Source of the DNA: Desulfuromonadales bacterium
GTDB lineage: Bacteria > Desulfobacterota > Desulfuromonadia > Desulfuromonadales > JBFHXN01
Direction: 5' to 3'
Assembly (NCBI GenBank): GCA_041598955.1
Contig: JBFHXN010000003.1
Coordinates: forward strand, 1-24,000
Length of the DNA stretch: 24,000 nt
Positions 1-24,000 of the stretch are shown one piece after another. A program made the position numbers and the translations under genes. The notes under the pieces were generated by a model that saw nothing but the letters and a program-made list of their open reading frames with translations, had not been told where the DNA came from and did not search any database. Positions within the stretch are counted from its first letter, which is position 1; every line of letters begins with the position of its first letter.

Positions 1-1097
1 AGGCGGTGCGGGTGGAGCCCGGGGCGACCCTGACCGTGCGCCCCGGCGCGGTGGTGACCTTCGCCACGGGGGGGCTGGAGGTGGCCGGGCGGCTCGTCGC
101 CGAGCAGGCCCTCTTCACGGGGAAGGACTGGCAGGGGATCGTTCTCAAGGGGTGCGACGAGGGAACCCTCCTGCGGGAGGTGCGGATCGAGGGGGCCCGC
201 ACGGGACTTCTCGTGACGGGCGGCGCCCCGCGCCTTCTGGGCCTCACCCTCGCGGGGAACGGGACCGGGATGGAGCTTCGGCAGAAGACCGCCGCCGAGG
301 TGGCCGACTCCCTCTTCAGCGGCAACGGGCGGGTGGGGCTCTTCGTCAAGGACGACGCCCTCCCCCGGATCGACGGCAACCGCTTCGAGCACAACGGAAA
401 GTTCGGCGCCTACATCCACCGCTCCACCCCGGCGAGTTTCCGGGGAAACCGCTTCCGGGGCAACCCCACGGGGCTGGCGGTCAGCAACTTCGGGAGCGAC
501 CCCCGCATCGAGGGGAACCTCTTCGAGGAGAACGAACTCGGCATCCTGGTCGACCGGGCCGCCCGCCCCGTCATCTCCGGTAATCGCCTGGAGGGGAACG
601 GCACGGGGTTGAGGCTCTACCGGCGCAGCGACGCCCAGGTGGAGGGAAACCGCTTCGGGGGGACGGGGGTCGCCGTCTCGGTGGCCTACTCCTCCTACCC
701 GCGGATCGCGGGGAATGATTTCGCCGGCCCGGGGCAGGCCCTTTTCCTGGAGTTCCAGTCGGCGCGCTGGGAGGCGGACCGGGGGGCGGCCGCCCGGGAG
801 GAGGAGGTGGCCTCCCGGGGAGCCTTCGGCGGCGCTCCCCGCACCCAGGTGACGGAGGAGGAGCGTCGGGCCAACGGTCTCGACGGCACCGTCGATGCCC
901 GGGGGAACTGGTGGGGGGAGGCGGGGACGGCTGAACTGCATCGCATCGGCCCGGGAGGAAACCCCTCCTTCATCCATGACGGCCGGGATGCTCCGACCTT
1001 CATCGAGGGGGGGAAGAGCTACCCTCTCGACACCGTGCGCTTCGCCCCCTGGAGCGAGACGCCCCTGACGGCGGGGAAGGCCCGGCCCGCACCCTAG
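1..1097 (+). CDS. Right-handed parallel beta-helix (PbH1/NosD-like) repeat protein, 5' end cut by the window edge (paralog A1)
   Basis: The frame is open from the window start. It shows about 22-aa repeats of the form NRF.GN..G (NRFEHNGKFGAYI, NRFRGNPTGLAV, NLFEENELGILV, NRLEGNGTGLRL, NRFGGTGVAVSV, NDFAGPGQALFL) and a C-terminal NWWGE ... RFAPW module. It aligns along its length with the 2328..3701 product and lacks only about 45 N-terminal residues, including the signal peptide. Confidence 0.8.
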   Translation, partial: AVRVEPGATLTVRPGAVVTFATGGLEVAGRLVAEQALFTGKDWQGIVLKGCDEGTLLREVRIEGARTGLLVTGGAPRLLGLTLAGNGTGMELRQKTAAEVADSLFSGNGRVGLFVKDDALPRIDGNRFEHNGKFGAYIHRSTPASFRGNRFRGNPTGLAVSNFGSDPRIEGNLFEENELGILVDRAARPVISGNRLEGNGTGLRLYRRSDAQVEGNRFGGTGVAVSVAYSSYPRIAGNDFAGPGQALFLEFQSARWEADRGAAAREEEVASRGAFGGAPRTQVTEEERRANGLDGTVDARGNWWGEAGTAELHRIGPGGNPSFIHDGRDAPTFIEGGKSYPLDTVRFAPWSETPLTAGKARPAP

Positions 1098-1105
1098 GAC
1101 GCAAG

Positions 1106-1134
1106 GGGACTGGCTCCCGCAGGGTGCCTGTCCC
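1106..1134. repeat. 29-nt palindromic hairpin element with symmetric T-T mismatches, copy 1
   Basis: gggacTggcTcccgcagggTgccTgtccc lies 9 nt after the A1 stop. An identical 29-mer lies at 15258..15286. Confidence 0.7.
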
Positions 1135-1183
1135 TGTCGGTCGAGAACGGATCTACCCCGTCTCGACGAGCCCGAAGTTCACC

Positions 1184-1220
1184 CCCTCTCCCTGGACGGG
1201 AGAGGGCCGGGGTGAGGGTG
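1184..1220. repeat. REP-like hairpin element, copy 1 (ccctctccc-N5-gggagaggg + ccggggtgagggtg)
   Basis: A 9-bp perfect stem (1184-1192 with 1198-1206) is followed by ccggggtgagggtg. A near-identical copy lies at 9407..9443. It translates to the spurious peptide SPWTGEGRGEGE in track ORF 1124. Confidence 0.75.
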
Positions 1221-1318
1221 AAAATCCGATCCTTCCGCTCCCGGCTCCCCGCCGGTCTTGCGTGCCCTTTGAACCATGCCCCCTGTTTTCAGGGGCTCAC
1301 GTCACGGGACATCCGACC

Positions 1319-2347
1319 ATGAAGCGACTGGCACTGATTCTGATCCTCCTCACCGCCGCCGCGCCGGCCCTCGCCTCCTCGGGGATCAAGGGCAGGGTCG
1401 CCTGGCGGGGGGAGTTGGTCCCCGAGGTGAGGGTGCGGGCCTACCGTGCCGTGGCCGACATCGCCCGGGGTGCCGCCGTGGCCGTCTCCGCGCCGGCGGC
1501 CACCGACGGCACCTACCGCCTCGAACTCCCCCCGGGAGAGTATTACCTCACCGCACGGGACTTCGAGGGGGCCCCGGTCCCGGGGGGGCATTTCTGCTAC
1601 TATAGTGGCGGTCCCGTGCGGGTCAGCGAGGGGAGCTATACCAACGTCGGCTTCAACCTGATCCGCATCCCGACCGAGGCGCCCCCCGAGGCGGGCTCCT
1701 TCACCGGGTTGCGCGGGGAGATCACCTTCCAGGGTGAGCCCCTCGAGAAAAGCTATCTCTATGTCTACCGGGACGGGGAGAAGGGGTTCAAGGGCCCCGG
1801 CTACCTGATCCATCCCGTGGAGCGGGGCACCTTCCGCCTGCGCCTCCCCCCGGGAGACTACTACCTGCTGGCCCGCAAGCGGGCTGTCGGGGGGATGTAC
1901 GGTCCCATCGAGATCGGAGACCATTTCAACTACTACTTCGGCAACCCCGTGCGGGTGGAGGCGGGGAAGGTCCGGGAGGTGAAGATCGAGACCATTACCC
2001 GCCTCTCCATGCTCGAGGAGGAGACGGCGCTCCCCTTTCACGGGGTGCGGGGAACCATTCTCGGCCCGGGGGACAAACCGGTTGCTGGGGTGCGGGTCTT
2101 CGCCTACCGCGACGCCGGGATGACCGGAACCCCGGCCTACTTCTCCCCCCCGACAGCCGCCGACGGCCGCTTCGAACTGGCGGTGCCGCTGGGGGAGGGT
2201 TTCTTCCTGCTGGCCCGGCAGAGCTTCGGCGGCCCGGCCGAGCCGGGGGAATTCTATGGCCGTTACGCCGGCCGGCCCGACCCCAGGGTGACGGTGGCGG
2301 AGAAAGAGAGCCTCGAGGTGACCATTCATGTGCAACCGCAGCCCTAG
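1319..2347 (+). CDS. Secreted protein with three tandem carboxypeptidase-regulatory-like (beta-sandwich) domains (paralog B1)
   Basis: The ATG at 1319 gives the signal peptide MKRLALILILLTAAAPALA-SS. Three ~100-aa repeats each begin G(I/L/V)(K/R)G.(V/I) and contain DG.(Y/F)RL.LPPG.YYL.AR ... NPVRV. The track ORF start at 1124 would translate two intergenic repeat elements, so it was not used. Confidence 0.75.
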   Translation: MKRLALILILLTAAAPALASSGIKGRVAWRGELVPEVRVRAYRAVADIARGAAVAVSAPAATDGTYRLELPPGEYYLTARDFEGAPVPGGHFCYYSGGPVRVSEGSYTNVGFNLIRIPTEAPPEAGSFTGLRGEITFQGEPLEKSYLYVYRDGEKGFKGPGYLIHPVERGTFRLRLPPGDYYLLARKRAVGGMYGPIEIGDHFNYYFGNPVRVEAGKVREVKIETITRLSMLEEETALPFHGVRGTILGPGDKPVAGVRVFAYRDAGMTGTPAYFSPPTAADGRFELAVPLGEGFFLLARQSFGGPAEPGEFYGRYAGRPDPRVTVAEKESLEVTIHVQPQP

Positions 2348-3701
2348 ACGCCTGGCTTTTGTGACACTCGTCCTGCTGGCCCTGGCCGCGGCCTGGTCCG
2401 GCCCCTCCGCGGCGGCCGAGCAGCGCGTCGAGGGGACCGCCCGCTGGAGCGGGGAGGTCCGCCTCAAGGGGACGGTGCTCGTCGCCCCGGGCGCCGTCCT
2501 GACCGTGGCGCCGGGGACGGTGATCCGTCCCGCGACCCCCGCCGACCGCATCGTGGTGCAGGGAGTGCTCAAGGTCGAGGGGACGGCCCAGGCCCCGGTC
2601 CGTTTCGTCGCCCCGAAAGGATGGCAGGGGATCGAGTTCGTCGAGTCCCCCGACGGCAGCGTCCTGCGCCATGCCGAGTTCCAGGGAGCCCAGGCAGCGG
2701 TGAGCTGCCTCGCCTCCTCCCCGGCCATCCTCTTCTGCTCCTTCCGTGACTGCGAGGCGGGGGTGAAGCTGCTGCGGGAGTCGGGATCCCGCATCGAGGA
2801 CTGCCTCTTCTCCGGCAACCAGATCGGCATCGACAACGAGATGAAGTCCTTCCCCGTCATCCGCCGCAACCGCTTCCTGGGGCAGGGCAAGTCGGGGATC
2901 GTCGCCTCCAACAACAGCCGGGGCGCCATCGAGGAGAACCTCTTCGAGAAGAACAAGCAGGCCGTGGGGCTGCACACCAAGTATCCCGACCGGGTGGCCA
3001 AAAACCGCTTCATCGACAACGAGACGGCCCTCTTCTGCTACCAGAGCCAGAACACTCCCCTGGTGACCGGCAACCTCTTCGAGAAGAACCAGGCCGCCCT
3101 GGTCAACTTTTCCTTCGCCTACCCGGCGGTGGAGGAGAACCGCTTCATCGGCAACCAGACGGCGGTCCGCAACGACCAGTTCGGATCGGCCCGCATCGTC
3201 CGCAACCTCTTCCGGGAGAACGGCACCGCCCTCTTCAACAACCGCAAGTCCAACCCCCAGGTGGAGAAGAACCTCTTCGAGAAGAACGGCCTGGCCCTCT
3301 TCGTCGACTACTCCTCCTACCCCAAGGTGCGGGACAACAACTTCATCGGAAACAAGAAGGGGGTGGAACTCGGCATCTACCAGAGCGCCGACTGGGAGAA
3401 GCGCTCCGGCTCCCGGCGCCTCGTCCAGGAGGAGGCCCAGGCCCGGGGGAGCCGCAATCCCCTCATCGCCCAGGCTCCCAACGCTTTCGAGGATTTCGTC
3501 GACGTGCGGCAGAACTGGTGGGGGGAGGATACCAGACTGCTCGCCGCCGCCGGCCCCGAGGGGAACGTCGCCATCTTCTTCGACCGCAGGGACAAGCCGA
3601 AGGTCACCTACGAGGGGTACGGGCAGGGGAGCTTCGTCCTTGACTGGGTCCGTTTCCACCCCTGGCTGGAGGCACCGGTGGCCGACGTGGGGCCGAAGTG
3701 A
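2328..3701 (+). CDS. Secreted right-handed parallel beta-helix (PbH1/NosD-like) repeat protein (paralog A2)
   Basis: The signal peptide is MCNRSPRRLAFVTLVLLALAAAWSGPSAAA. At least 10 repeats follow of the type N(L/R)F..N..A(L/V) (NLFEKNKQAVGL, NRFIDNETALFC, NLFEKNQAALVN, NRFIGNQTAVRN, NLFRENGTALFN, NLFEKNGLALFV, NNFIGNKKGVEL). The C-terminal module is NWWGE ... VRFHPW. The start overlaps the B1 stop by 20 nt. Confidence 0.85.
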   Translation: MCNRSPRRLAFVTLVLLALAAAWSGPSAAAEQRVEGTARWSGEVRLKGTVLVAPGAVLTVAPGTVIRPATPADRIVVQGVLKVEGTAQAPVRFVAPKGWQGIEFVESPDGSVLRHAEFQGAQAAVSCLASSPAILFCSFRDCEAGVKLLRESGSRIEDCLFSGNQIGIDNEMKSFPVIRRNRFLGQGKSGIVASNNSRGAIEENLFEKNKQAVGLHTKYPDRVAKNRFIDNETALFCYQSQNTPLVTGNLFEKNQAALVNFSFAYPAVEENRFIGNQTAVRNDQFGSARIVRNLFRENGTALFNNRKSNPQVEKNLFEKNGLALFVDYSSYPKVRDNNFIGNKKGVELGIYQSADWEKRSGSRRLVQEEAQARGSRNPLIAQAPNAFEDFVDVRQNWWGEDTRLLAAAGPEGNVAIFFDRRDKPKVTYEGYGQGSFVLDWVRFHPWLEAPVADVGPK

Positions 3702-4738
3702 TGAGGGTCCGGATCCTTCTTCTGGCCGCTCTGCTCTTGCCGGGCGCCCTGCAGGCAGCCCTGGTGGAGGGGAGGGTGGTCTCGGCCGAGAGCCCCCTGG
3801 CCGGGGTCCGGGTGGAAGCCCACTCCACCCTCGATTATTCGGGGCCCCCGGTGGCGGTTTCGGGGCCCAGTGCAGCGGACGGGAGCTACCGGATGGATCT
3901 GCCCGAGGGGCTCTACGCCTTTTTCGCCCGGGACGCCGACCGGGGCCTTTTCGCCTTCTGCGGCCAGAACCCCGTGGCCGTCGGCGGGGAGAGCGTCTGG
4001 GTCGGGCTGCAGGCGATTCCCTTCCGGGCCCCCGAGCGGCGCCCCTACGACAACGAGTATGCCGGGGCCGTCGAGGGGGTGGTGCTCTTCGAGGGGGCCC
4101 CCCTGGAGGGGGCTTATCTCTCCCTTTATCTCGATGTGGCGGAGGACCTCAAAGGGCAGGGGTACCGCCTCTCCCCCCCCACGGGGCCCGACGGACGCTT
4201 CGCCTTTGACGATCTGCCCGAAAGCGGATATTTTCTCGTCGCCCGCAAGCGTCAGGGGGGGGGACGGGTCGGCCCCGTCCGGGAGGGGGATCACCTGGCC
4301 GTCTTCGGCGGCAATCCCCTGGCCGTGCGGGCCGGGGAGTCGATCCGGGTCGTCCTGGAGGCCGTTGCCAAGGTTCGCCCGGCCTCCGGCGCGGAAACCC
4401 TCGGGCGGGTCACGGGCAACGGTTTCCGGGGGATGGTGACCGACGCCGCAGGGAAGCCCGTGGCCGGGATGCACGTCTTCGCCTACACCGACCGGGTCAT
4501 CGGTCACCAGCGCCCCGCGGCCCTTTCGGCCCCCACGGGGCCCGACGGTCGCTTCGAGGTCCACCTGCCCGAACCGGGCACCTATTTCGTCGGCGCCCGC
4601 AGGGACTACGGGGATTCCCCGGCCCCCGGCGAGCCCTTCGGCCTGTACGATGCGACGGCGGACCACGGCCTTGCGATCCCTCCGGGGACGATTCTGGAGG
4701 GGATCCGGATCGTGGTCGAGCCGATCAACCTGCAATAG
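3701..4738 (+). CDS. Secreted protein with three tandem carboxypeptidase-regulatory-like domains (paralog B2)
   Basis: The signal peptide is MRVRILLLAALLLPGALQA. The three-domain plan matches B1 (DGSYRMDLPEGLYAFFAR, DGRFAFDDLPESGYFLVARKRQGGGRVGPVREGDH, DGRFEVHLPEPGTYFVGAR). The ATG at 3701 overlaps the A2 TGA (gTGATGa). A GTG at 3698 is an alternative start. Confidence 0.75.
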   Translation: MRVRILLLAALLLPGALQAALVEGRVVSAESPLAGVRVEAHSTLDYSGPPVAVSGPSAADGSYRMDLPEGLYAFFARDADRGLFAFCGQNPVAVGGESVWVGLQAIPFRAPERRPYDNEYAGAVEGVVLFEGAPLEGAYLSLYLDVAEDLKGQGYRLSPPTGPDGRFAFDDLPESGYFLVARKRQGGGRVGPVREGDHLAVFGGNPLAVRAGESIRVVLEAVAKVRPASGAETLGRVTGNGFRGMVTDAAGKPVAGMHVFAYTDRVIGHQRPAALSAPTGPDGRFEVHLPEPGTYFVGARRDYGDSPAPGEPFGLYDATADHGLAIPPGTILEGIRIVVEPINLQ

Positions 4739-4740
4739 GG

Positions 4741-4860
4741 GACTGTTGAAAAACGCCGGTCTGCCGCGCTCCCCTCGTCCCTCGGCCTCGACGTAGCTTT
4801 CGCTATGCCTAACGCCTCGGAACTTCGGGCGCCTCGCATCCAGGCATTATTGAACAGCCC
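4741..4860. repeat. ~120-nt MITE-like palindromic intergenic element, copy 1
   Basis: The element starts 2 nt after the B2 stop. Its imperfect terminal inverted repeats are gactgttgaaaaac ... ttattgaacagccc, around a conserved core cgacgtagctttcgctatgcct. It aligns at roughly 70% identity by eye with 9184..9305. Confidence 0.7.
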
Positions 4861-4902
4861 AAGATTCCATGCTTTTGAGTGCAAACTGCAAAGGGAGGGA
4901 CC

Positions 4903-5208
4903 ATGAGCAGCAAACCGGAGCAACCCGAGGTCAAGCTGGAGATCCAGGTCGACGAGGAGACCGCACAGGGGGTTTACGCCAACCTGGCGGTGGTCAACCA
5001 CAGCGACGCCGAATTCACCCTCGACTTCATCTTCGTGCAACCCCAGGTTCCCCGGGGCAAGGTGCGGACCCGGGTGATCACCTCCCCCCGGCATGTCAAG
5101 CGCCTGTTGCAGGCCCTGCAGGAGAATCTGCGCAAGTACGAGGAGAAGTTCGGCGTCATCGAGACCGGCGGGGCACAGGGCCCCGCGCCGGCGGGGGATT
5201 ATCACTGA
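4903..5208 (+). CDS. DUF3467 family small protein
   Basis: MSSKPEQPEVKLEIQVDEETAQGVYANLAVVNHSDAEFTLDFIF...RVITSPRHVKRLLQALQENLRKYEEKFG matches my memory of the DUF3467 pattern (GxYSNLAxxxHSxxEFxxDF ... P.HAKRLL.AL..N..KYE). The RBS GGGAGGG at 4893-4899 sits 3 nt upstream of the ATG at 4903. The GTG at 4879 used by the track is less likely. Confidence 0.7.
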   Translation: MSSKPEQPEVKLEIQVDEETAQGVYANLAVVNHSDAEFTLDFIFVQPQVPRGKVRTRVITSPRHVKRLLQALQENLRKYEEKFGVIETGGAQGPAPAGDYH

Positions 5209-5228
5209 GGGAAAGGGACGGGGCATCG

Positions 5229-6101
5229 ATGGGCAGACGCCTTTCACTCCTGGCCGCCCTCCTGGTTTTGGGAGGCTGCGCGGCGGCCCGGCCCGCTGCG
5301 ATCCTTGAGGATGCTGTGATCGCCGGCGAGGCCGTCTGGTCCGGGGAGGTGCGCATCCGGGGAATCGTCACCGTGAAGAAGGGGGGACGGCTCACCATCC
5401 TTCCGGGTACCCGGGTGGTCTTCGAGAAGCTCGACCGGGACGGCGACGGCATCGGCGACGGGGAGCTGCTCGTGGAGGGGGCCCTGGTGGCCAAGGGTCG
5501 CCCGGGCGAGCCGATCCTCTTCACCAGCGGGGCCGACAGGCCGGCCCGGGCCGACTGGAAGTTCATCTATCTCGACTTCGCCCGGGAGGGGGTCCTCGAG
5601 CAGGTGGTCGCCGAGTATGCCTACAGCGGTATCCAGGTCCACTTCTGCGCCGCCTCCATCACCGACTCGGTCTTCCGCCACAATGTCGACGGGGTCCGCT
5701 TCTCCACCGCCCGGGTCGAGGTGGCCGGCAACCGCATCCACGACAACACCCACGGCATCCGCTACGAGGAGCGCCGGGGGAGCGGGCGGGTCCATCACAA
5801 CGACATCGTCGGCAACGACGTGGGGATCTTCGTGGTGACCCGCGCCGAGGATCGCACGAGCATCGAGGAGAACAACGTGACGGGCAACCTGCGGTACAAT
5901 GTGAAAATGGGGCTTGACCAGGCCGGGGACGTTACCTTCCCCCGCACCTGGTGGGGCACCGTCGATCCGGCGGAGATCGCCGGCACCTTTTTCGACAAGA
6001 CGTTCGACCCCGCCCTCGGGCGGGTCCGGGCCCCGGAGCCCCTGGCGGCGCCGGTGGCCATCGATACCTGGAGACACGCGCAAGGAGGCTCAGGCATATG
6101 A
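5229..6101 (+). CDS. Beta-helix (PbH1/NosD-like) repeat lipoprotein (paralog A3, short)
   Basis: MGRRLSLLAALLVLGGC carries an LGGC lipobox. The N-terminal segment VWSGEVRIRGIVTVKKGGRLTILPGTRVVF parallels A1 and A2. It also has an acidic loop DRDGDGIGDGE, repeats (NRIHDNTHGIRY, NDIVGNDVGIFV, NNVTGNLRYNV) and a C-terminal TWWG motif. The upstream part of track ORF 4869 is Arg/Gly/Pro-rich off-frame sequence overlapping the DUF3467 gene. Confidence 0.7.
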   Translation: MGRRLSLLAALLVLGGCAAARPAAILEDAVIAGEAVWSGEVRIRGIVTVKKGGRLTILPGTRVVFEKLDRDGDGIGDGELLVEGALVAKGRPGEPILFTSGADRPARADWKFIYLDFAREGVLEQVVAEYAYSGIQVHFCAASITDSVFRHNVDGVRFSTARVEVAGNRIHDNTHGIRYEERRGSGRVHHNDIVGNDVGIFVVTRAEDRTSIEENNVTGNLRYNVKMGLDQAGDVTFPRTWWGTVDPAEIAGTFFDKTFDPALGRVRAPEPLAAPVAIDTWRHAQGGSGI

Positions 6102-6703
6102 AAGGATTCTTCCGGAAATCGGCCCTCGTGGCCATGCTCGCCCTCTTCCCCCTGGCGGTTGTGCAGCCGGCCGTGGCCTGCGTCGGCAAGACCCTGGTCA
6201 TCGGCTCCAAGGGGACGGTCCAGCAGGACATCATGGCCCAGCTCCTCGCCCTGCTCATCAGCGAGCGGACCGGGACCACCTCCAAGGTGGTGAAGTTCGA
6301 TTCGACCGCCGCCGCCCACGAGGCGCTTCTGCGGGCCGACCTCGACCTCTACGTGGAGTACACCGGGGTCGGGCAGACGGAGATCCTCAAGGGGGAGGCC
6401 TTTTCCGACCGGGAACGGCTCTACGGCGAGGTCAAGGCACGCTACAACCAGGATCTCAACCTCATCTGGCTGCAGCCCCTCGGCTTCGAGGAGCCCTCCG
6501 TCGTCCCCCCCGGGGTCCCCGCCCAGGCGGCTCCGGTGGTTCGCAAGGACACCCTGAAGAAGTTCCCGGCCCTGGCCCGGCTCATCGACAAGCTGGGGGG
6601 CGCCATCGACGGCGAGACCATGAAGCGCCTGGAGAAGGAGGCGGCGGGGGAGAATTTGAGAGAGGTGGCGAGACGCTTCCTCAAGGATCGAAAGCTGATT
6701 TAG
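6098..6703 (+). CDS. Exported OpuAC/ProX-like (glycine-betaine-type) substrate-binding-domain protein, unusually short
   Basis: The RBS AAGGAGG lies at 6082-6088, and the ATG at 6098 overlaps the A3 stop (ATGA). The signal peptide is MKGFFRKSALVAMLALFPLAVVQPAVAC. KTLVIGSKGTVQQDIMAQLLALLISERTG ... ADLDLYVEYTGVG and the C-terminal AIDGETMKRLEKEAAGENLREVARRFLKDRKLI resemble the two ends of OpuAC-family binding proteins. The product is only 201 aa. Confidence 0.5.
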   Translation: MKGFFRKSALVAMLALFPLAVVQPAVACVGKTLVIGSKGTVQQDIMAQLLALLISERTGTTSKVVKFDSTAAAHEALLRADLDLYVEYTGVGQTEILKGEAFSDRERLYGEVKARYNQDLNLIWLQPLGFEEPSVVPPGVPAQAAPVVRKDTLKKFPALARLIDKLGGAIDGETMKRLEKEAAGENLREVARRFLKDRKLI

Positions 6704-6714
6704 GAGAGAGCCCC

Positions 6715-15251: not shown

Positions 15252-15292
15252 AGGACCGGGACTGGCTCCCGCAGGGTGCCTGTCCCGGTCCT
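15252..15292. repeat. 29-nt palindromic hairpin element, copy 2 (stem extended to 11 bp at the base)
   Basis: aggaccgggac-tggctcccgcagggtgcct-gtcccggtcct. The central 29 nt are identical to 1106..1134. It lies about 75 nt upstream of the response regulator start. Confidence 0.7.
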
Positions 15293-15988: not shown

Positions 15989-16065
<77 letters not shown>

Positions 16066-17075: not shown

Positions 17076-18131
17076 TCAATCCCCCTTCTCCGTTCCCTGC
17101 GGCAGGAGCAGGTCGTGGTTCGCCACGGCCGCCAGCCAGATCCCCAGGAGCAGCCCGTTCTCGACCAGCAGCAGACCCAGGTGGGGCGGCGCCGCGGGGA
17201 GGATGAGGAGCGCCCTTTCGGCGAAGAGCCCGGTGAGTACGGCCAGGGCAACCAGGAGCAGGGCGGCGGGGGTTTGTTTGGCCCTCCGGGAGAGCAGGGC
17301 GAGGAAGGGGACGAGAAAGAGCCCCACCAGGAAGAGCGCGCAGAGGAGGAGTCGCCCCGGGGTGGCGAGGCGGTCGAGGATGTAGCCGACCTCCTCGGGG
17401 AGGTTGCCGTACCAGAGCAGCAGGTACTGGGCGAAGAAGAGGCCGGCCCAGAGGATGCTGAAGCCGAAGGTCAGCAGGGCGAGGTCCCGCATGTGGGTTT
17501 CGCCCAGGGGGGGGAGGTCGACCTTGGACCGGCGCAGCAGGAAGAAGAGCAGGCCGGCCAGGGCGAGGCCGCCGTAGAGGGCCTCGACGAAGAAGTAGGC
17601 GCCCAGCAGGGTGCTCACCCAGGGCCAGGCGAGGGACATGACCCAGTCGAAGGCGACCAGGGTCTGGGAGGCGACGAAGGCGAAGAGGTAGAGAACGGCG
17701 GCTGCGGACCGGCGGGGATCACCGGCGAGGGAGAGGCGGGCGAAGCGCCCTGCGGCCAGGGCCACGGCGAAAAGGAGCAGGGCGTTTCGGCCGAGGAAGA
17801 AGGGGGCGTTGAGCCAGGCCCCCGGGTGGCCCGACCAGGGGTAGATCTCGAGGCGCAGCCCCAGGAGCAGGAAGAGAAGGGGGAAGAGAAAGAGCAGGGG
17901 CGTAGCGGCGAGGAGTTCCCGGCGCAGGGAGGCAATCCAGCGGGCTCCGACCAGGTCGGTGACGGCCGCCACGGCCACGGCCCCCTGCAGAAGGGCGCTC
18001 CAGAAAACCAGGGTGATCAGCAGGGTTCCCGGCGCCGGGGGGAATCCCCCGAATTCAAGAAAGGCGAAGAGGCCGACCAGGAGCAATCCGAGGAGCGTGT
18101 AGTGGCTTTTGGAAAGGCGCAGGGTGGTCAT
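17076..18131 (-). CDS. ActF-like NrfD-family integral membrane subunit of an Alternative Complex III-like complex
   Basis: The 351-aa polytopic membrane protein has an ATG that overlaps the ActD stop (ATGA). FWSALLQGAVAVAAVTDLVGARWIASLRRELLAA parallels FWVGIAHSGTLISAVLFLFRARFRTSFNRAAEAM of the upstream ActC. LNAPFFLGRN is also ActF-like. Confidence 0.6.
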   Translation of the reverse strand: MTTLRLSKSHYTLLGLLLVGLFAFLEFGGFPPAPGTLLITLVFWSALLQGAVAVAAVTDLVGARWIASLRRELLAATPLLFLFPLLFLLLGLRLEIYPWSGHPGAWLNAPFFLGRNALLLFAVALAAGRFARLSLAGDPRRSAAAVLYLFAFVASQTLVAFDWVMSLAWPWVSTLLGAYFFVEALYGGLALAGLLFFLLRRSKVDLPPLGETHMRDLALLTFGFSILWAGLFFAQYLLLWYGNLPEEVGYILDRLATPGRLLLCALFLVGLFLVPFLALLSRRAKQTPAALLLVALAVLTGLFAERALLILPAAPPHLGLLLVENGLLLGIWLAAVANHDLLLPQGTEKGD

Positions 18132-18568
18132 GGGCGCCTCCTGCCGGGATGGACCTCGATGACGAAGCGGCCTCCCGCCCCGTCGGCCTCGGCCACCCCG
18201 GCTCGGCGGGGCAGGCGGGCCAGGAAGAGGAATCCGGCGAAGGCCCCCAGGGAGCCGAAGAGGATGGTCATCAGGTAGGCGATGATCAGGAAGGGGGGAA
18301 GGGAGACGATGGGCTTGCCGCCGGTGACGAGGGGCCAGTCGAGGGCGGTGTAGATGGTGAAGGCGAGGCCGCCGCCGAAGCCTCCCAGGGCTCCTGCCAG
18401 GGCGAAGAGGCGGGTGCGGCTCGGGGGAAGGCCGAGGAGCTCCTCCACCTCGGGCACCTCGAAGGGAAGGTGGAGGAGCAGCTCCCCGGGAGAGACCCCT
18501 TCGCCGAGCAGGGCCCGCAGCTTGGCCAGGAACTCCTCCCGGTCCTCGATGAGAAAGCGCTCGGGCAT
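18128..18568 (-). CDS. ActD (DUF3341) membrane subunit of Alternative Complex III
   Basis: The 146-aa product has an N-terminal soluble part (FLAKLRALLGEG..., LHLPFEVPEVEELLG) and then two hydrophobic helices (LFALAGALGGFGGGLAFTIY, LPPFLIIAYLMTILFGSLGAFAGFLF). The ATGA overlap with ActC and its position after ActC fit ActD. Confidence 0.65.
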   Translation of the reverse strand: MPERFLIEDREEFLAKLRALLGEGVSPGELLLHLPFEVPEVEELLGLPPSRTRLFALAGALGGFGGGLAFTIYTALDWPLVTGGKPIVSLPPFLIIAYLMTILFGSLGAFAGFLFLARLPRRAGVAEADGAGGRFVIEVHPGRRRP

Positions 18569-19863
18569 CAGAGGTGCTCCTTGAGTTCAGTCATGGAGAG
18601 GACGGGGAGGGTCTTTGCGAAGAGGAGAAAGGCCAGAAAGAAGAGACCGAAGGAGCCGGCGGTGATGCCGACCTCGACGTAGGAGGGGGCGTAGGCCCCC
18701 CAGACGTAGGGGTCGTAGTCGCGGGCGAGGGAGGCGACGATGATCACGAAGCGCTCCACCCACATGCCGACGTTGACCAGCAGCGCCAGGACGAAGAGAA
18801 AGGGGAGGCTGCGCCTGGCTTTTTTCAGGAAAAGGAGCAGGGGGAGCAGGGAGTTGCAGAGGATCATGATGATGAAGAGGACCCGGTAGTCCCCCAGGGC
18901 CCGGTAGAGGAACTGGTCGATCTCGAAGAGGTTGCCGCTGTAGGCGGCCATCCCCCCCTCCACCAGGTAGGTGAAGCTGACGATGAGGGAGGTGAAGAGC
19001 AGGATCTTGGCGATGGCTTCGAAATGATCGACGGTGATGTACCGCTCGAGCCCGAGAAACCGGCGCATGGGGAGGATGAGGGTGATGACCATGGCGGTGC
19101 CGGAGAAAATGGCCCCGGCCACGAAGTAGGGGGCGAAGATGGTCGTGTGCCACCCCGGCACGATGCTCACGGCGAAGTCCCAGGAGACGATGGAGTGGAC
19201 CGAGGCGACCAGGGGGGTGGCGAAGGCGGCCAGAAAGAGGTAGAGCTTGCGGTAGTGGCGCCACTCCTCCACCGTTCCCCGCCATCCCAGGGAGAGCAGG
19301 GCGAAGAGCTTCCCCTTGATCCCCCCGAGCCTGCGGCGGGCGATGGCCAGGTCGGGGAGCATCCCGACGTAGAAGAAGACGAGGCTGACCAGCATGTAGG
19401 TGGTGACGGCGAAGACGTCCCAGATGAGCGGCGAGCGGAAGTTGACCCAGAGCATCCGCTGGTTGGGGTAGGGGAAGAGGTAGTAGAAGACCCAGACCCG
19501 GCCGAGGTGGATGAGGGGGAAGAGCCCCGCCACCGAGAGGGCGAAAATGGTCATGGCCTCCGCGGCCCGGTTGAAGCTGGTGCGGAAGCGGGCGCGGAAG
19601 AGAAAGAGGACGGCCGAGATGAGGGTGCCCGAGTGGGCGATGCCGACCCAGAAGACGAAGTTGGTGATGTAGACCCCCCAGTTGACCGGGTGCATCAGAC
19701 CGGCCACCCCCAGGCCCCGGTGGATCTGGTAGCCCCAGAGGGAGAGGCCCACGGCACCGAGGAGGGCGCACAGGGCGAGGGCCCCAAGGTAGGGGAGGCC
19801 GGGGCGCCCCATGGCGGCGAGGACATCCTTTTCCACCTCTTCTCTTCGGGCGAGGGGGTCCAT
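18568..19863 (-). CDS. ActC, NrfD/PsrC-like quinol-interacting membrane subunit of Alternative Complex III
   Basis: MDPLARREEVEKDV... is followed by NWGVYITNFVFWVGIAHSGTLISAVLFLFRARFR and multiple helices typical of the NrfD family. The ATG lies 2 nt after the ActB stop. Confidence 0.8.
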   Translation of the reverse strand: MDPLARREEVEKDVLAAMGRPGLPYLGALALCALLGAVGLSLWGYQIHRGLGVAGLMHPVNWGVYITNFVFWVGIAHSGTLISAVLFLFRARFRTSFNRAAEAMTIFALSVAGLFPLIHLGRVWVFYYLFPYPNQRMLWVNFRSPLIWDVFAVTTYMLVSLVFFYVGMLPDLAIARRRLGGIKGKLFALLSLGWRGTVEEWRHYRKLYLFLAAFATPLVASVHSIVSWDFAVSIVPGWHTTIFAPYFVAGAIFSGTAMVITLILPMRRFLGLERYITVDHFEAIAKILLFTSLIVSFTYLVEGGMAAYSGNLFEIDQFLYRALGDYRVLFIIMILCNSLLPLLLFLKKARRSLPFLFVLALLVNVGMWVERFVIIVASLARDYDPYVWGAYAPSYVEVGITAGSFGLFFLAFLLFAKTLPVLSMTELKEHL

Positions 19864-19865
19864 GG

Positions 19866-22703
19866 TCAGGCCTCCGGTTCGGGGCGCCCGGCGCGGTCGG
19901 GACGCAGGTAATAGACGGAAGGCTCGGTTCCGAGGTGCTCGAAAACCCGGTAGGCCCGGTCGGCGGCTGTCAACCGGGCGATTCGGGAGGATTCGTCCTT
20001 CAGGTTGCCGAAGACCATGGCGCCGGAGGGGCAGGTCTGGGCGCAGGCGGTGACCACCTCGCCGTCTAGAATGGGGCGCCCCTCGTCCCTGGCCCGGTCG
20101 TGACCGGCGCGGATGCGCTGGATGCAGAAGGTGCACTTCTCCATCATGCCCCGGGTCCGCACCGTGAGGTCGGGGTTGAGCATCCGGTCGAGGGGGGCCT
20201 TGCGGGGGTGATCCCACCAGTTGAAGCGGCGCACCTTGTAGGGGCAGTTGTTGGAGCAGTAGCGGGTGCCGACGCAGCGGTTGTAGACCTGGACGTTGAG
20301 CCCCTCGGGGTTGTGGTAGGCCGCGTAGACGGGGCAGACCGGCTCGCAGGGGGCGTAGTGGCAGTGCTGGCAGAGCATGGGGAGGAACTCGGGGCGCCCC
20401 TCGGCGTCGTAGAAGGGCTCGACACGCAGCCAGGACATCTCCCGCCCCTGGAGGTGGTCCTTCTCCCCCGCCACGGGGATGTTGTTCTCCGCGTGGCAGG
20501 CGGCGACGCAAGCGCCACAGCCGGTGCAGCGGCCGAGGTCGATGGCCATGGCCCAGCGGACGTCGGGGTGGGGATGCTCGGGGTAGAGGCTGCGGCGGCC
20601 ATGGCCGGGGGGATGGTCGCGGTGCACGGGGTCGGGGATGAGCCCTCGCCCCTGCTGGGAGGTCGACCCGGCGAGGATGGCCAGGGGATGGCTCCTGCGG
20701 GAGGTCTCCAGGCGTGTGACGGGGAGCCAGGAGAGGGGTTCCCCGGTCTGCGGGTCGGCTTGGAACAGGGAGGGGTCGGCCAGGTCACGCTGGATCGCCA
20801 GGACCCCCTCGGGAAGCCCCGGCTGTACAACGGCGGGCAGCTCCCCCGCGAAGGCTCCTGCGGCGAGGATGAGCCCGTCGCGATTGACGACGCCGAGCCG
20901 GGCGGCCTCCCGGGGAGAGACGGAGAGCCATTGTCCGTAGCTGACGGTGGTGAGGGGGTCGGGGATTTCGGAGAGAAGGGGGAGGGCCAGGCCGCGGCCG
21001 TCGAAGCGGCGGATGGAGGGGGGGATGACCAGGACCGGCCCATCGGCCCCGGCCCCCGGCGTCACGGTCCGAAGAAAGCCGGCGGCCTCCGCAACCCGGA
21101 GCGTTGGGGAGGATTCCCGTGAGGTGCTCTCGGAAAATCCCCGGGAGATCAACTCCTTTGCTCCGGCTTCACCCAAGCCCCGGCGCCACCTCTGCTCCAG
21201 AAAGTGCCGGAAGTTCCCTCCCGGCCCACCGCCGGCCTGTCGCCAGAGGGCGAGGAGGATGTCCCCCTCGCCGAGGCTCTCCCCCTCGGGGGGGGAGGCC
21301 GGCTGGACAAGGGAGAAAAGACCCCGGCGCACCTCGGCGTCCCCCCAGGTTTCCAGGGGGTGGGCGAGGGGGAGGACGAGGTCGCAGGACCGGGCCGTTC
21401 CGTCGAGTCTCTCCGCCAGTGCCACCCGCAGCTGGGCCCTCCCCAGGGCCCCGGAGAGACCGAAGTCGGCCGGGGCATGAAAAAGGGGATCGACCCGGGA
21501 GAAGAGGAGGAGGCCGGCCCCGTCGCCGGCGAGGGTTTGGGAGAGGTCGCGGAGGGTTTTCAGGGAGCCGACCCCCTCGTAGTTGGCGCCGCGGGAGAAA
21601 TCGACGGTGCCCCCCACCATGCCGGCTGTCCACTGGAGAAGGCCGGCCAGGACGGCTGTCTCGAGCCCCCGGGGCTGCCCCGTGGCCACGCCCCCCGCCA
21701 CCAGCAGGGGGCGGCGGGCGGCGGCCAGGGAGGCGGCGAGCCCTTCGATCTCCTGCAGGGGAAGTCCAGTCCCGGCGGCGGCCTCCGGAGCGGTAACGGC
21801 GGGCAGGTGCTGCCGCACCGCCGGGGGAAGGCGGTCGCGGAAGGGGGCCGCCGGAGCGAGACGCCCCAAAAGGAAGGCCAGGAGCAGTGTCTCGGAGCCG
21901 GCCCGCAGGGTCATCCTGCGATGGGCGTTCACCCCCGTCAGGGAGCAGTGGGGCTCCAGGTGGACCCAGGTGAAACCGGGTGACTCGGCGGCCCGGGCGA
22001 GCTGCCGGGTCTGCTCCACGGGGCTGACGAAGGTCTCCAGGAGATCGGCTCCCAGGGTCAGCAGGAAATCGGCCTTTTCCAGGTGATAGCGGGGGATGTC
22101 GGGGCGGCCGAAGAGCAGGCTGTTGGCCATGCGCAGGGCGGGGTGGCCGTAAAGCTCGAAGTCGGGGAGCCTCTCCATGCCGAGGGCGCTGCAGGTCTGG
22201 TCGAGAAGATTAGAGAGGCTCCCCGTCGTGCGTCCGGCGAGCAGGAGGTTGCGTTGCCCTTCGCGCCGGGCCGTGGAGAGGGCCCCGGCGACGAGGGCGA
22301 GGGCTTCCTCCCAGTCGACGGGGGCAAAGGAGCAGTTCTCCCCACGGCGAAGGGGGGTGCGCAGCCGCTCCGGGTGGTAGAGCCGCCAGAGGGCGGCCTG
22401 CCCCCGCATGCAGAGGGCTCCGTCGTTGACGGGGTGTCCCGGCAGCCCCTCGAGCTTGACCGCCCGTCCTTCCCGCAGCCGCACCTGGATCCCGCAGCCG
22501 GCAGGGCACTCGCCGCAGGTGGAGGGAATCCAGCGCGCCTCGCCGGGGGTGACCCCGTCCTCGGGAGGAACCAGGTAGGAGATCAGGTCCTGCTGCCCCT
22601 TCTCCGAGCCGCAGGAGGTGAGAAGGGTGGCGCCTGAGAGCAATCCGAGGCGATGGAGGAATTGGCGTCGGTCCATGGTCCGGTCGGTCCTTTGGTCGTT
22701 CAT
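19866..22703 (-). CDS. ActB, Tat-signal molybdopterin-oxidoreductase-like + 4Fe-4S ferredoxin fusion subunit of Alternative Complex III
   Basis: The twin-arginine leader is (MNDQRTDRT)MDRRQFLHRLGLLSGATLLTSC, with a possible LTSC lipobox. The N-terminal MopB-type cluster is CGECPAGCGIQV. The C-terminal ferredoxin module contains CTGCGACVAACHAENN, CQHCHYAPCEPVCP, CVGTRYCSNNCPYKVRRFNW, CTFCIQR and CAQTCPSGAMVFG. Start candidates are 22703, 22676 and 22721. The track ORF start at 23168 overlaps ActA and was rejected. Confidence 0.8.
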   Translation of the reverse strand: MNDQRTDRTMDRRQFLHRLGLLSGATLLTSCGSEKGQQDLISYLVPPEDGVTPGEARWIPSTCGECPAGCGIQVRLREGRAVKLEGLPGHPVNDGALCMRGQAALWRLYHPERLRTPLRRGENCSFAPVDWEEALALVAGALSTARREGQRNLLLAGRTTGSLSNLLDQTCSALGMERLPDFELYGHPALRMANSLLFGRPDIPRYHLEKADFLLTLGADLLETFVSPVEQTRQLARAAESPGFTWVHLEPHCSLTGVNAHRRMTLRAGSETLLLAFLLGRLAPAAPFRDRLPPAVRQHLPAVTAPEAAAGTGLPLQEIEGLAASLAAARRPLLVAGGVATGQPRGLETAVLAGLLQWTAGMVGGTVDFSRGANYEGVGSLKTLRDLSQTLAGDGAGLLLFSRVDPLFHAPADFGLSGALGRAQLRVALAERLDGTARSCDLVLPLAHPLETWGDAEVRRGLFSLVQPASPPEGESLGEGDILLALWRQAGGGPGGNFRHFLEQRWRRGLGEAGAKELISRGFSESTSRESSPTLRVAEAAGFLRTVTPGAGADGPVLVIPPSIRRFDGRGLALPLLSEIPDPLTTVSYGQWLSVSPREAARLGVVNRDGLILAAGAFAGELPAVVQPGLPEGVLAIQRDLADPSLFQADPQTGEPLSWLPVTRLETSRRSHPLAILAGSTSQQGRGLIPDPVHRDHPPGHGRRSLYPEHPHPDVRWAMAIDLGRCTGCGACVAACHAENNIPVAGEKDHLQGREMSWLRVEPFYDAEGRPEFLPMLCQHCHYAPCEPVCPVYAAYHNPEGLNVQVYNRCVGTRYCSNNCPYKVRRFNWWDHPRKAPLDRMLNPDLTVRTRGMMEKCTFCIQRIRAGHDRARDEGRPILDGEVVTACAQTCPSGAMVFGNLKDESSRIARLTAADRAYRVFEHLGTEPSVYYLRPDRAGRPEPEA

Positions 22704-22729
22704 CGTTCCCCTGGTGTTCATTGGTGGGG

Positions 22730-23242
22730 TTACTGGTGGCAGGTCGCGCAGTCGGTCGGGGCCCCCCGGCCCCGGTGGCAGGTCACGCACCATCCCAACT
22801 CCAGGGGGCGCACCCGGCGCACGACCGTCATCCCCTCCACCGCACCATGGCAGGCGGCGCAGTCGAGCCCCCCACGCAGGTGGCGCTTGTGAGAGAAGTA
22901 GACGAAGGAGGGAAGCCCGTGGACCCTCGCCCACCGCAGGGGCTCCCCCCGTTCCACGAAGGCGGCCAGTTTGCGGATCTCGGGCCGATCGACGGCAACG
23001 CTCCGGTGGCAGGAGAGGCAGAGGTCGAGGGTTGGAACCCCCGCCTGACGGGAGCTCTCGGCGTGGCTGTGGCAGTAGGTGCAGGGGAGGGCGAGCCGGC
23101 CCGCATGCACGGTGTGAGGGAAGGCGATCGGCTGGGCAGGCGGTTTCTGGAAGGTTTCCCAGGTCCACCAGAGTCCTCCCGTGGCCAGGAGGAAGAGGCC
23201 GAAGTAGCCGACCACCAGAAGATTCAGAAAGAGGCGGAGCAT
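22730..23242 (-). CDS. ActA, membrane-anchored pentahaem c-type cytochrome of Alternative Complex III
   Basis: The N-terminal anchor is MLRLFLNLLVVGYFGLFLLATGG. There are five CxxCH motifs: CTYCH, CLSCH, CAACH, CVTCH and CATCH. The RBS GGGAGA lies 5-6 nt upstream of the ATG at 23242. A GTG at 23284 is an alternative start. Confidence 0.8.
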   Translation of the reverse strand: MLRLFLNLLVVGYFGLFLLATGGLWWTWETFQKPPAQPIAFPHTVHAGRLALPCTYCHSHAESSRQAGVPTLDLCLSCHRSVAVDRPEIRKLAAFVERGEPLRWARVHGLPSFVYFSHKRHLRGGLDCAACHGAVEGMTVVRRVRPLELGWCVTCHRGRGAPTDCATCHQ

Positions 23243-23309
23243 GAAGGTCTCCCGGGGAATGGTCCTTGAGGGGGTCCTGTCCACTCTGTCTGCGTGGCGA
23301 TGGTTTCCA

Positions 23310-24000
23310 CTATTGGTCCCCCGCCAAGAGATAGTGGACCACGGCGGCGATCTCGGCGTCGGTCAGACCCAGGGCCGGCATGGCCGGGTAGTCCTCCCGG
23401 ACCTTTCGGGGCTTTCGGATGAAGGATTCGAGGGCCTCGGCCCGTTCCCGGTAGGCCGGGAGGATCTCGTCGAGGGGAGGGCCCACCAGGCGCGTATCGA
23501 AGTGGTGGCAGCCGGCGCAGGAACGGTTGAAGACAGCCTCGCCGGAGGGGGCCATGTCCGCCTCCCTCTCCCCGGGCCCGGCGAGGACCGGGGATGCCGG
23601 TTCGGGAGGCGTCGACGCGGCCACCACCTGTTGGGGAGGAATTCCCTCGGGGATGACGTTTTCAATGGCCGTCTGCCCCCCGAGTACCCAGAGGGCGAAG
23701 AGGCCGATGACGGCCGCGAAGAGGGCCCCTCCCCGGGCACTCCCCCGGCCGAGGAAGAAGCCGAGAAGAAGCAGGCAGGCGAAGAGCGCAAGAAGCAGGG
23801 CCAGGGCCGCCAGGGCGAAGATGGCAGGGGAGCGGGAGGTCACCGGCAGGGTCAGCAGGTCGAAGAGCAGGGCGGGAGGAAAGAGGGGAAGGGCGACGGC
23901 GGCCAGCAGGGCTCCGGCGCGGCAGGTGAGCCGATTGTGCTCGGGGTCCTGGCTCCCCAGGCGCCCGGCGCGCTCTCCGAAGAGAAGGAGGGCCGCGCCG
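23310..24000 (-). CDS. Membrane-anchored monohaem class I c-type cytochrome; the reading frame stays open to the window edge, so it is probably 5'-partial
   Basis: The C-terminal domain FNRSCAGCHH ... PAMPALGLTDAEIAAVVHYL has one CxxCH plus a Met ligand. Hydrophobic helices lie upstream. The first canonical start is a GTG at 23843. However, 23844-24000 has no stop in this frame, about 87% GC3, and encodes another helix-like stretch (ALLAAVALPLFPPALLFDLLTL). Confidence 0.6.
   Translation of the reverse strand, partial: GAALLLFGERAGRLGSQDPEHNRLTCRAGALLAAVALPLFPPALLFDLLTLPVTSRSPAIFALAALALLLALFACLLLLGFFLGRGSARGGALFAAVIGLFALWVLGGQTAIENVIPEGIPPQQVVAASTPPEPASPVLAGPGEREADMAPSGEAVFNRSCAGCHHFDTRLVGPPLDEILPAYRERAEALESFIRKPRKVREDYPAMPALGLTDAEIAAVVHYLLAGDQ

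Follow-up and report, generated by a model that had tools for sequence, protein, structure and literature searches.

The window analysed here comprises the first 24,000 nucleotides (nt) of contig JBFHXN010000003.1 (assembly GCA_041598955.1), from a Desulfuromonadales bacterium. Its left end holds genes for two families of exported proteins, right-handed beta-helix proteins (A1, A2 and A3) and triple beta-sandwich proteins (B1 and B2), and these are part of a conserved gene cluster in which B and A genes alternate. Adjacency of A and B genes is kept in at least 45 species. We tentatively favour a reading in which the A and B subunits would form a non-catalytic, lipid-tethered hetero-oligomer in the periplasm, a scaffold or binding platform that possibly serves a quinol-linked redox module. 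No published description of this large, tightly conserved envelope gene set of Desulfuromonadales, and no assigned function, was found in the literature searched.

Two paralogous families of exported proteins

Profile hidden Markov model searches, suggested in a preliminary description of this DNA, assign the A proteins to NosD/Beta_helix and the B proteins to CarboxypepD_reg. A1, A2 and A3 all score above the Pfam gathering thresholds for both NosD (93, 90 and 35 bits) and Beta_helix (82, 110 and 34 bits; threshold 25.9 for A2). For CarboxypepD_reg (PF13620), whose cut-off is 32.3 bits, B1 scores 42.8 and B2 56.7, and B2 additionally matches DUF4198 (48 bits). By BLASTP, A1 and A2 are 32% identical (E 3e-52), their C-terminal QSA.WE ... 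NWWGE ... F.PW tail included, and B1 and B2 are 36% identical over 328 residues, the full three-domain length (E 1e-46). On these alignments, A1/A2 and B1/B2 are paralogues. A3 is 29% identical to A2 (E 8e-10), with the match confined to the N-terminal cap and first coils, that is, the N-terminal half. The 22-residue coil period is visible even in the DNA: A1, A2 and A3 contain repeats at intervals of 66, 132 and 135 nt.

Two of the gene junctions overlap. The ATG of A2 (2328) lies inside B1, whose TAG stop occupies 2345–2347, an overlap of 20 nt; A2 and B2 share a single base in TGATG, with the A2 TGA at 3699–3701 and the B2 ATG at 3701–3703. The preliminary description had reported both overlaps, and it was equally right about the order and coordinates of the five genes, which agree with the listing of open reading frames (Table 1), about the common plan of A1 and A2 and the three domains of B1 and B2, and about A3 as a shorter beta-helix lipoprotein. 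It had also given all five proteins a signal peptide (that of B1 is MKRLALILILLTAAAPALASSG in the translated frame). This stands except for A1, whose reading frame is still open at the start of the window and whose start codon lies beyond the contig end; A1 orthologues do carry a signal peptide. Its inventory of the A, B and A3 genes was sound but lacked the DUF3467 gene and the DUF362/polyferredoxin module, both described below.

A conserved B-A-B-A-B operon

A scan of one genome per species gave 45 loci, on which the 15 cluster genes of Desulfuromonas carbonis were located by tblastn; loci entered the presence counts if enough sequence flanked them. Gene order is conserved as [FG-GAP/ASPIC] - [B0 - A0] - X815 - Bp - A1 - B1 - A2 - B2 - [DUF3467] - A3 - [OpuAC-like] - DUF362 - polyferredoxin - [DUF3047], where A0 combines a beta-helix with a PQQ-like propeller, and the full cluster has four A genes and four B genes. 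The complete series Bp-A1-B1-A2-B2 was present in 35/35 loci. X815 lies upstream of Bp in 32 of 33 loci, and A3 downstream of B2 in 35 of 40. The preliminary description had asked whether the gene beyond the window's edge was another B gene or a catalytic partner such as nosZ: at this position, orthologous loci have Bp, a B gene, preceded by the SpeE-like membrane protein gene X815, and no nosZ. Two rearrangements are in keeping with a physical association of the families: B0 and A0 stand on the opposite strand in L008, still adjacent to each other, and in L053 the same families are rearranged with their clustering retained.

Overlapping junctions were the rule within the series: 34/35 loci for Bp>A1, 32/38 for A1>B1, 37/43 for B1>A2 (median –26 nt) and 41/46 for A2>B2 (median –4 nt). 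The 221-nt gap between A1 and B1 of the window is atypical. Between B2 and the next gene, overlap was never seen. By this pattern the translationally coupled unit is B-A-B-A-B, rather than two A-B pairs, and the tandem duplication of a simple A-B module, as first proposed, gives way to a five-gene operon. Nor is the duplication recent. The window proteins are 64% (A1, against Desulfuromonas carbonis), 64% (B1), 53% (A2) and 58% (B2) identical to their positional orthologues and thus closer to these than to their paralogues in the window, so the A/B duplication is older than these lineages. A recent tandem duplication was therefore rejected, with paralogues 32–36% identical versus 53–64% for positional orthologues.

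Close relatives of A2 and B2 number in the hundreds, at 50–67% identity (50–64% for A2 orthologues, 55–67% for B2 orthologues), the named ones coming from Desulfuromonas, Geoalkalibacter, Geothermobacter, Geopsychrobacter and Trichloromonas; an exact look-up of the Geothermobacter B1 orthologue gave no match. Among taxon-labelled sources, the cluster of 12–15 genes is confined to Desulfuromonadales. Three distant deltaproteobacterial loci of low guanine-plus-cytosine content (28–45% identity) hold just the five core genes, of Bp-A1-B1-A2-B2 type, amid housekeeping genes, so the five-gene core is autonomous. Lipoboxes are mostly restricted to Bp and A3 (at least 22 of 27 A3 orthologues have one), and A1, B1, A2 and B2 mostly have none. 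In the distant five-gene loci, both terminal B proteins carry lipoboxes.

Natural fusions of A and B

The B-family profile was searched against 1.84 billion cluster representatives, and 281 clusters were found at E ≤ 1e-30. Among the best 150 of these, nine are fusions of a B protein with a NosD/Beta_helix domain, in both orders: three A-then-B (P0392, P0395 and P0412) and six B followed by a short A3-type helix (P0372, P0438, P0463, P0470, P0487 and P0489). In P0392 the A tail (...FSPWEKEPP...) joins the N-terminus of mature B, the B signal peptide having given way to a short linker. P0470, a B-linker-A3 protein, occurs on three contigs, and several members each make up the P0392 and P0438 clusters, so one-off errors of assembly do not explain the fusions. 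By the Rosetta-stone argument, such fusions support contact between A and B, and hence a physical association of the two families. Mirror-tree analysis of 27 genomes gave its highest residual correlations for A1-A2 (0.59), X815-Bp (0.49), Bp-A3 (0.44), A1-B1 (0.36) and B1-A2 (0.34); these weak signals are no more than an exploratory hint as to which subunits may touch.

The combination of beta-helices with Ig-like folds typifies adhesins, pilins and surface-layer parts, and the genes could instead encode adhesins or surface-layer components that are co-transcribed yet act independently, form no defined complex and have nothing to do with the nearby redox genes. FG-GAP/ASPIC genes often adjoin the cluster, and NosD-like proteins of sediment communities that lack the copper motif have been argued to be adhesion proteins (PMC13452462). 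However, the four overlapping junctions and the recurrent A/B fusions favour co-assembly, and identities of 50–67% across genera are high for surface-exposed adhesins. Moreover, the cluster has no outer-membrane secretion genes (of the type I, II, V or IX secretion system kinds), and the sequences show neither LPXTG nor any other signal for sorting to the surface; B1 and B2, for example, lack LPXTG and end in ...HVQPQP and ...EPINLQ. We regard independent adhesins as improbable.

Predicted structures and the question of catalysis

AlphaFold (AF2) monomer models of A2 and B2 were built from orthologue alignments. The A2 model (predicted local distance difference test score, pLDDT, 90.5) forms a beta-helix whose coils are regular and have three strands each; after it comes a partly helical cap with the QSADWE and NWWG motifs. 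B2 (pLDDT 82) is modelled as three beta-sandwiches arranged like beads on a string. Among solved structures searched with Foldseek, A2 found NosD (7osf, 7o0y) with the best E-value, at template modelling (TM) scores of ∼0.3, with tailspikes, PL6 lyases and AlgG close behind. The best matches of B2 were Gram-positive pilins and Sulfolobus SlaB (TM-scores ∼0.2). A sequence search for relatives of solved structure gave nothing significant, the top PDB profile match being NosD (E = 0.1).

The fold neighbours that follow NosD (tailspike endoglycosidases, PL6 lyases, AlgG and the AlgE epimerases) raise the idea that the A proteins are CASH-type enzymes, whether lyase, hydrolase or C5-epimerase, which act on exopolysaccharide or envelope glycan in matrix or biofilm remodelling, with the B proteins as carbohydrate-binding or spacer modules. 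Polar residues that are invariant among orthologues occupy the turn of every coil, and A2 orthologues have the strongly conserved polar turns NEMKS, RNDQFGS and NNRKSNP. One relative (L051) lies beside sulfatase and formylglycine-generating enzyme (FGE)-type genes, and the A proteins give a weak match to Pect-lyase_RHGA_epim. Yet this match is below threshold (17.8 versus 27 bits), as are all catalytic families, and no enzyme family in Pfam or NCBIfam matches A or B at threshold. AlgG catalysis relies on a DPHD-type motif on the helix; neither this nor a [DN]P[HN][DE] motif occurs in any of 11 A-type sequences (0/11). The only acidic or basic residue invariant across the A paralogues is D419, in the C-terminal cap, and the conserved cluster is devoid of glycosyltransferase, polysaccharide-export and Wzx/Wzy genes. 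Glycan enzymes are, on this evidence, an unlikely explanation.

Likeness to NosD could mean that the A proteins are periplasmic chaperones which pass metal or sulfur to a client, perhaps the twin-arginine translocation (Tat)-exported DUF362 protein or cytochromes, with electrons supplied by the NapGH-like polyferredoxin. NosD is the best solved neighbour by E-value and the top, though non-significant, PDB profile match; the Pfam NosD scores are above threshold; and a NapH/NapG-type gene is present at 22 of 25 loci. DUF4198, matched by B2, is a family once misannotated as the nickel-uptake protein NikM. In their third domain, B2 orthologues have invariant H259, H270 and H323 together with D265, D306, E312 and D322, residues that are not found in B1 or Bp and could form a metal site. 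However, canonical NosD is defined by its family score, by anchoring to NosY with nosF, nosY, nosL and nosZ as neighbours, and by a His-Met-Met motif for transient copper binding (PMC13452462), and the A proteins show none of the three. The motif is absent from the 11 A-type sequences, in which no His or Met is invariant or nearly so apart from Met1. Taken alone, A2 orthologues keep a single Met (M172) without variation, and no His. The B paralogues keep Gly, Pro, Tyr, Arg, Asp and Asn, within an AR.R..G..GP...GD....Y.GNP insertion that is repeated in each domain; a three-fold internal motif is seen in the B alignments, and the invariant set looks structural rather than metal-binding.

Scores for TIGR04247 (NosD_copper_fam) are far below the cut-off of 300 bits, at 49.5 for A1, 58.0 for A2 and 21.9 for A3, and the TM-scores to NosD are low. 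By gene calls and Pfam, neither nosF, nosY, nosL, nosZ nor an ABC transporter lies within ∼10 kb on either side of the cluster in six annotated neighbourhoods (L002, L004, L050, L051, L053 and L055). A complete nos cluster just beyond the window was rejected as well, with the contig of 24,260 nt ending within 260 nt and the orthologous loci having Bp and the SpeE-like gene upstream. Judged by its genes and motifs, the A/B cluster is not a Nos system, and we consider a chaperone role for the A proteins quite unlikely. The original view that the cluster matches no characterised system thus held up, literature and family searches being negative.

Neighbouring genes and a possible redox link

Beyond B2, the window continues with genes that recur in related loci (Table 1). 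The DUF3467 gene is found in 20/25 loci. After A3 comes the OpuAC-like gene in 21/25, and in L051 it follows a B-A3 fusion. DUF362 is encoded at 23/25 loci, the polyferredoxin at 22/25, and the junction between the two overlaps in 24/26. The window DUF362 protein begins with RREFVRRSL...AALGG; the family shares a Pfam clan with LarA racemases (PMC11770544). The polyferredoxin consists of a NapH-like membrane part, an internal twin-arginine transmembrane segment and a NapG-like Tat-exported domain with 4x[4Fe-4S], the features of the dual Sec/Tat type that was shown experimentally for an MLMS-1 protein (PMC5449189). All 25 aligned polyferredoxins, the window copy included, have the internal DLxRR motif and hydrophobic stretch, and in relatives the protein, of 510–517 residues, is encoded by a single gene.

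The window copy of the polyferredoxin gene has an in-frame TAG (8496–8498) just before the internal twin-arginine segment. At this column, 24 orthologues are uninterrupted and mostly have Glu, for which the codon GAG is one base from TAG. The gene may be truly split or a pseudogene, or the assembly may be in error; most simply, the TAG is a substitution or a sequencing error. A selenocysteine or pyrrolysine reading was set aside, the codon being TAG and the orthologous residue mostly Glu; pyl genes were not searched for.

Upstream of Bp, X815 (815 residues; L002 4288–6735) has ∼7 N-terminal and 6–7 C-terminal transmembrane segments around a domain whose similarity to spermidine synthase is weak yet consistent, the GPGGG motif included. 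With ∼7 preceding helices and a positively charged N-terminus, the SpeE-like domain may face the periplasm, which, if true, would be unusual for a fold of the type that binds S-adenosylmethionine (SAM) or decarboxylated SAM. In one B-family protein (P0443; L054 6179–8062), the C-terminus continues into a class I SAM methyltransferase domain, although the N-terminus has a signal-like segment. A free gene (L051 7244–7909) that matches these methyltransferase families of Pfam is found close to the B-A3 fusion of L051. Together with X815, the two observations hint that alkyl-transfer chemistry may be tied to the system. In the L051 locus (1–9000), from a Desulfuromonadaceae metagenome-assembled genome (MAG), two sulfatases, three genes with FGE-sulfatase domains and a multihaem cytochrome adjoin the B-A3 fusion and the OpuAC-like gene.

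In three genomes (Trichloromonas L012 and L023, and Geoalkalibacter L050), cytochromes with 10–24 haems directly follow A3. L050 clearly lacks the DUF362/polyferredoxin module, and the contigs of L012 and L023 end soon after the cytochromes. That two different electron-transfer modules occupy the same position after A3 suggests a link to extracytoplasmic electron transfer.

Under the reading we favour, the exported A and B products would assemble in the periplasm as alternating beta-helix and triple beta-sandwich subunits. The lipoproteins Bp and A3, as end members, would tether the assembly to a membrane, with A1, B1, A2 and B2 soluble, and the subunits would act as binding or scaffold proteins rather than as enzymes. 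In Desulfuromonadales, the encoded partners would be the polytopic SpeE-like membrane protein, the short OpuAC-like lipoprotein, the quinol-dehydrogenase-type Sec/Tat polyferredoxin and the Tat-exported DUF362 protein. Encoded with such membrane and redox partners, the assembly would most likely be a docking or handling platform for a redox process of the envelope. The data establish paralogy, folds, export signals, operon structure, conservation, fusions and the distinction from Nos; that A and B form a physical complex (a stoichiometric one, in the preliminary description), that they lack catalytic activity and that they are linked to redox chemistry are inferences.

Several observations count against this picture. 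The pairing of A and B, at first described as obligate, is not strict: L055 has no A1, and the A1 of Geoalkalibacter halelectricus looks truncated. A3 is absent from five loci. The mirror-tree signal is weak, and the conserved polar turns of A2 might just as well belong to an active site. All loci are from a single order plus a few deltaproteobacterial MAGs of unstated order, so the conserved synteny partly reflects shared ancestry. Since the distant five-gene loci have neither electron-transfer module and cytochrome genes are abundant in the order, we can only infer the redox link, which may be lineage-specific or a matter of mere neighbourhood. Likewise, with multihaem cytochrome genes so common here, the three cytochrome adjacencies could be due to chance.

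Desulfuromonadales serve as models in the study of respiration with sulfur, iron, manganese and electrodes. A fuller scenario, speculative and rather unlikely, would make the cluster an undescribed envelope machine of marine and subsurface Desulfuromonadales, in which a lipid-tethered Bp-A1-B1-A2-B2-A3 chain is built around the SpeE-like membrane protein. Electrons from the quinone pool would pass through the polyferredoxin to a Tat-exported DUF362 enzyme, and the role of the machine in anaerobic respiration would be to capture or process an extracytoplasmic substrate that is insoluble or polymeric (such as elemental sulfur or polysulfide, metal oxides, or an envelope polymer). If the redox link is true, it would give DUF362 and this polyferredoxin family their first role. 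Its alternating operon, the natural fusions of A and B, and the regular presence beside it of a quinol-type polyferredoxin, a Tat-exported DUF362 protein or multihaem cytochromes make the cluster a concrete target for genetic and structural work in cultured species such as Desulfuromonas carbonis, Geoalkalibacter halelectricus and Geothermobacter.

Other features of the window

Two short repeats in the A1-B1 spacer recur in the window at 97% identity. The one at 1106–1138 resembles the intergenic 15258–15290, and that at 1184–1220 resembles 9407–9443 and can form the hairpin CCCTCTCCC...GGGAGAGGG. Both look like repetitive extragenic palindromic (REP) or miniature inverted-repeat transposable (MITE)-like elements. 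After the polyferredoxin, relatives have a DUF3047 gene in 19/25 loci; in the window this gene is missing from 9177–9470, and one repeat copy sits at the site. Farther along, an alternative-complex-III-like gene set occupies 17076–23843 on the minus strand and is not part of the A/B cluster. Promoter and terminator scans of the window returned weak consensus matches inside genes only. An origin in anti-phage defence or a prophage was rejected: PADLOC found none, and the sole PHROG match is to a function-unknown family, for DUF3467.

Table 1. Features of the window, with coordinates in nt from its first position
Feature	Position	Strand	Remarks
A1, beta-helix, exported type	3/6–1097	+	N-terminus lost at contig end, ∼30 residues missing
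A1-B1 spacer	1098–1318		221 nt; holds two short repeats, each with a further copy in the window
B1, exported, three transthyretin-like (CarboxypepD_reg) beta-sandwich domains	1319–2347	+	Met at 1319
A2, exported beta-helix, three-strand coils and C-terminal QSADWE...NWWG...PW cap	2328–3701	+	
B2, exported triple beta-sandwich	GTG 3698 or ATG 3701 to 4738	+	
DUF3467 small protein, no signal peptide	4903–5208	+	Pfam 96 bits; between B2 and A3
A3, short beta-helix lipoprotein, short NWWG-type tail	5229–6101	+	LVLGGC lipobox; Met at 5229
OpuAC-like substrate-binding-fold protein, 200 residues, probable lipoprotein	6101–6703	+	Pfam OpuAC 76 bits
DUF362 protein, Tat-type twin-arginine leader	6700 or 6715 to 7638	+	Pfam 167 bits; start codon uncertain
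NapH-NapG fusion polyferredoxin	7635–9176	+	NCBIfam NapH and NapG match its two halves
GGDEF response regulator	9470–10390	–	Next gene after the polyferredoxin
tRNA gene	15992–16065	–	Rfam RF00005, 70.7 bits; sole RNA element found in the window
NrfD-like membrane subunit	18568–20511	–	Alternative-complex-III-like set
Molybdopterin-like/FeS subunit	19866–23168	–	Alternative-complex-III-like set
Five-haem cytochrome	22730–23284	–	Alternative-complex-III-like set
Mono-haem cytochrome c	23310–23843	–	Alternative-complex-III-like set

Comparison with known systems

The tandem CnaB/transthyretin-like proteins represented by pilins and SlaB resemble B2 in fold only. Unlike them, the B proteins lack sortase motifs, isopeptide motifs and a coiled-coil anchor, and their AR.R..G..GP...GD....Y.GNP insertion is specific to the family. 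With the CASH enzymes (AlgG/AlgE epimerases, PL6 lyases and phage tailspikes), the A proteins have in common an overall fold and a periplasmic or extracellular location, at a sequence identity of 10–15%. The window polyferredoxin has the same parts as NapGH and the MLMS-1 polyferredoxin (PMC5449189), but unlike NapGH it is partnered with a Tat-exported DUF362 protein instead of a nitrate reductase, and its gene contains the in-frame TAG.

NosD, of the NosDFY(L) machinery, is like the A proteins a periplasmic right-handed beta-helix (PDB 7o0y, 7osf). Unlike NosD, the A proteins bear their own signal peptide or lipid anchor, and four paralogous beta-helix types alternate with triple-sandwich partners, which nos systems do not have. 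Clade II nos clusters encode a NosGH electron module, and the A/B cluster similarly has a NapH/NapG-type module nearby. Nevertheless, the automatic 'NosD' labels in these genomes do not signal nitrous oxide metabolism. The NosD-like genes of sediment communities and viruses are single and varied, often in dockerin or tail contexts (PMC13452462), whereas the A genes belong to a fixed multi-gene operon with B partners, a SpeE-like membrane protein and a redox module.

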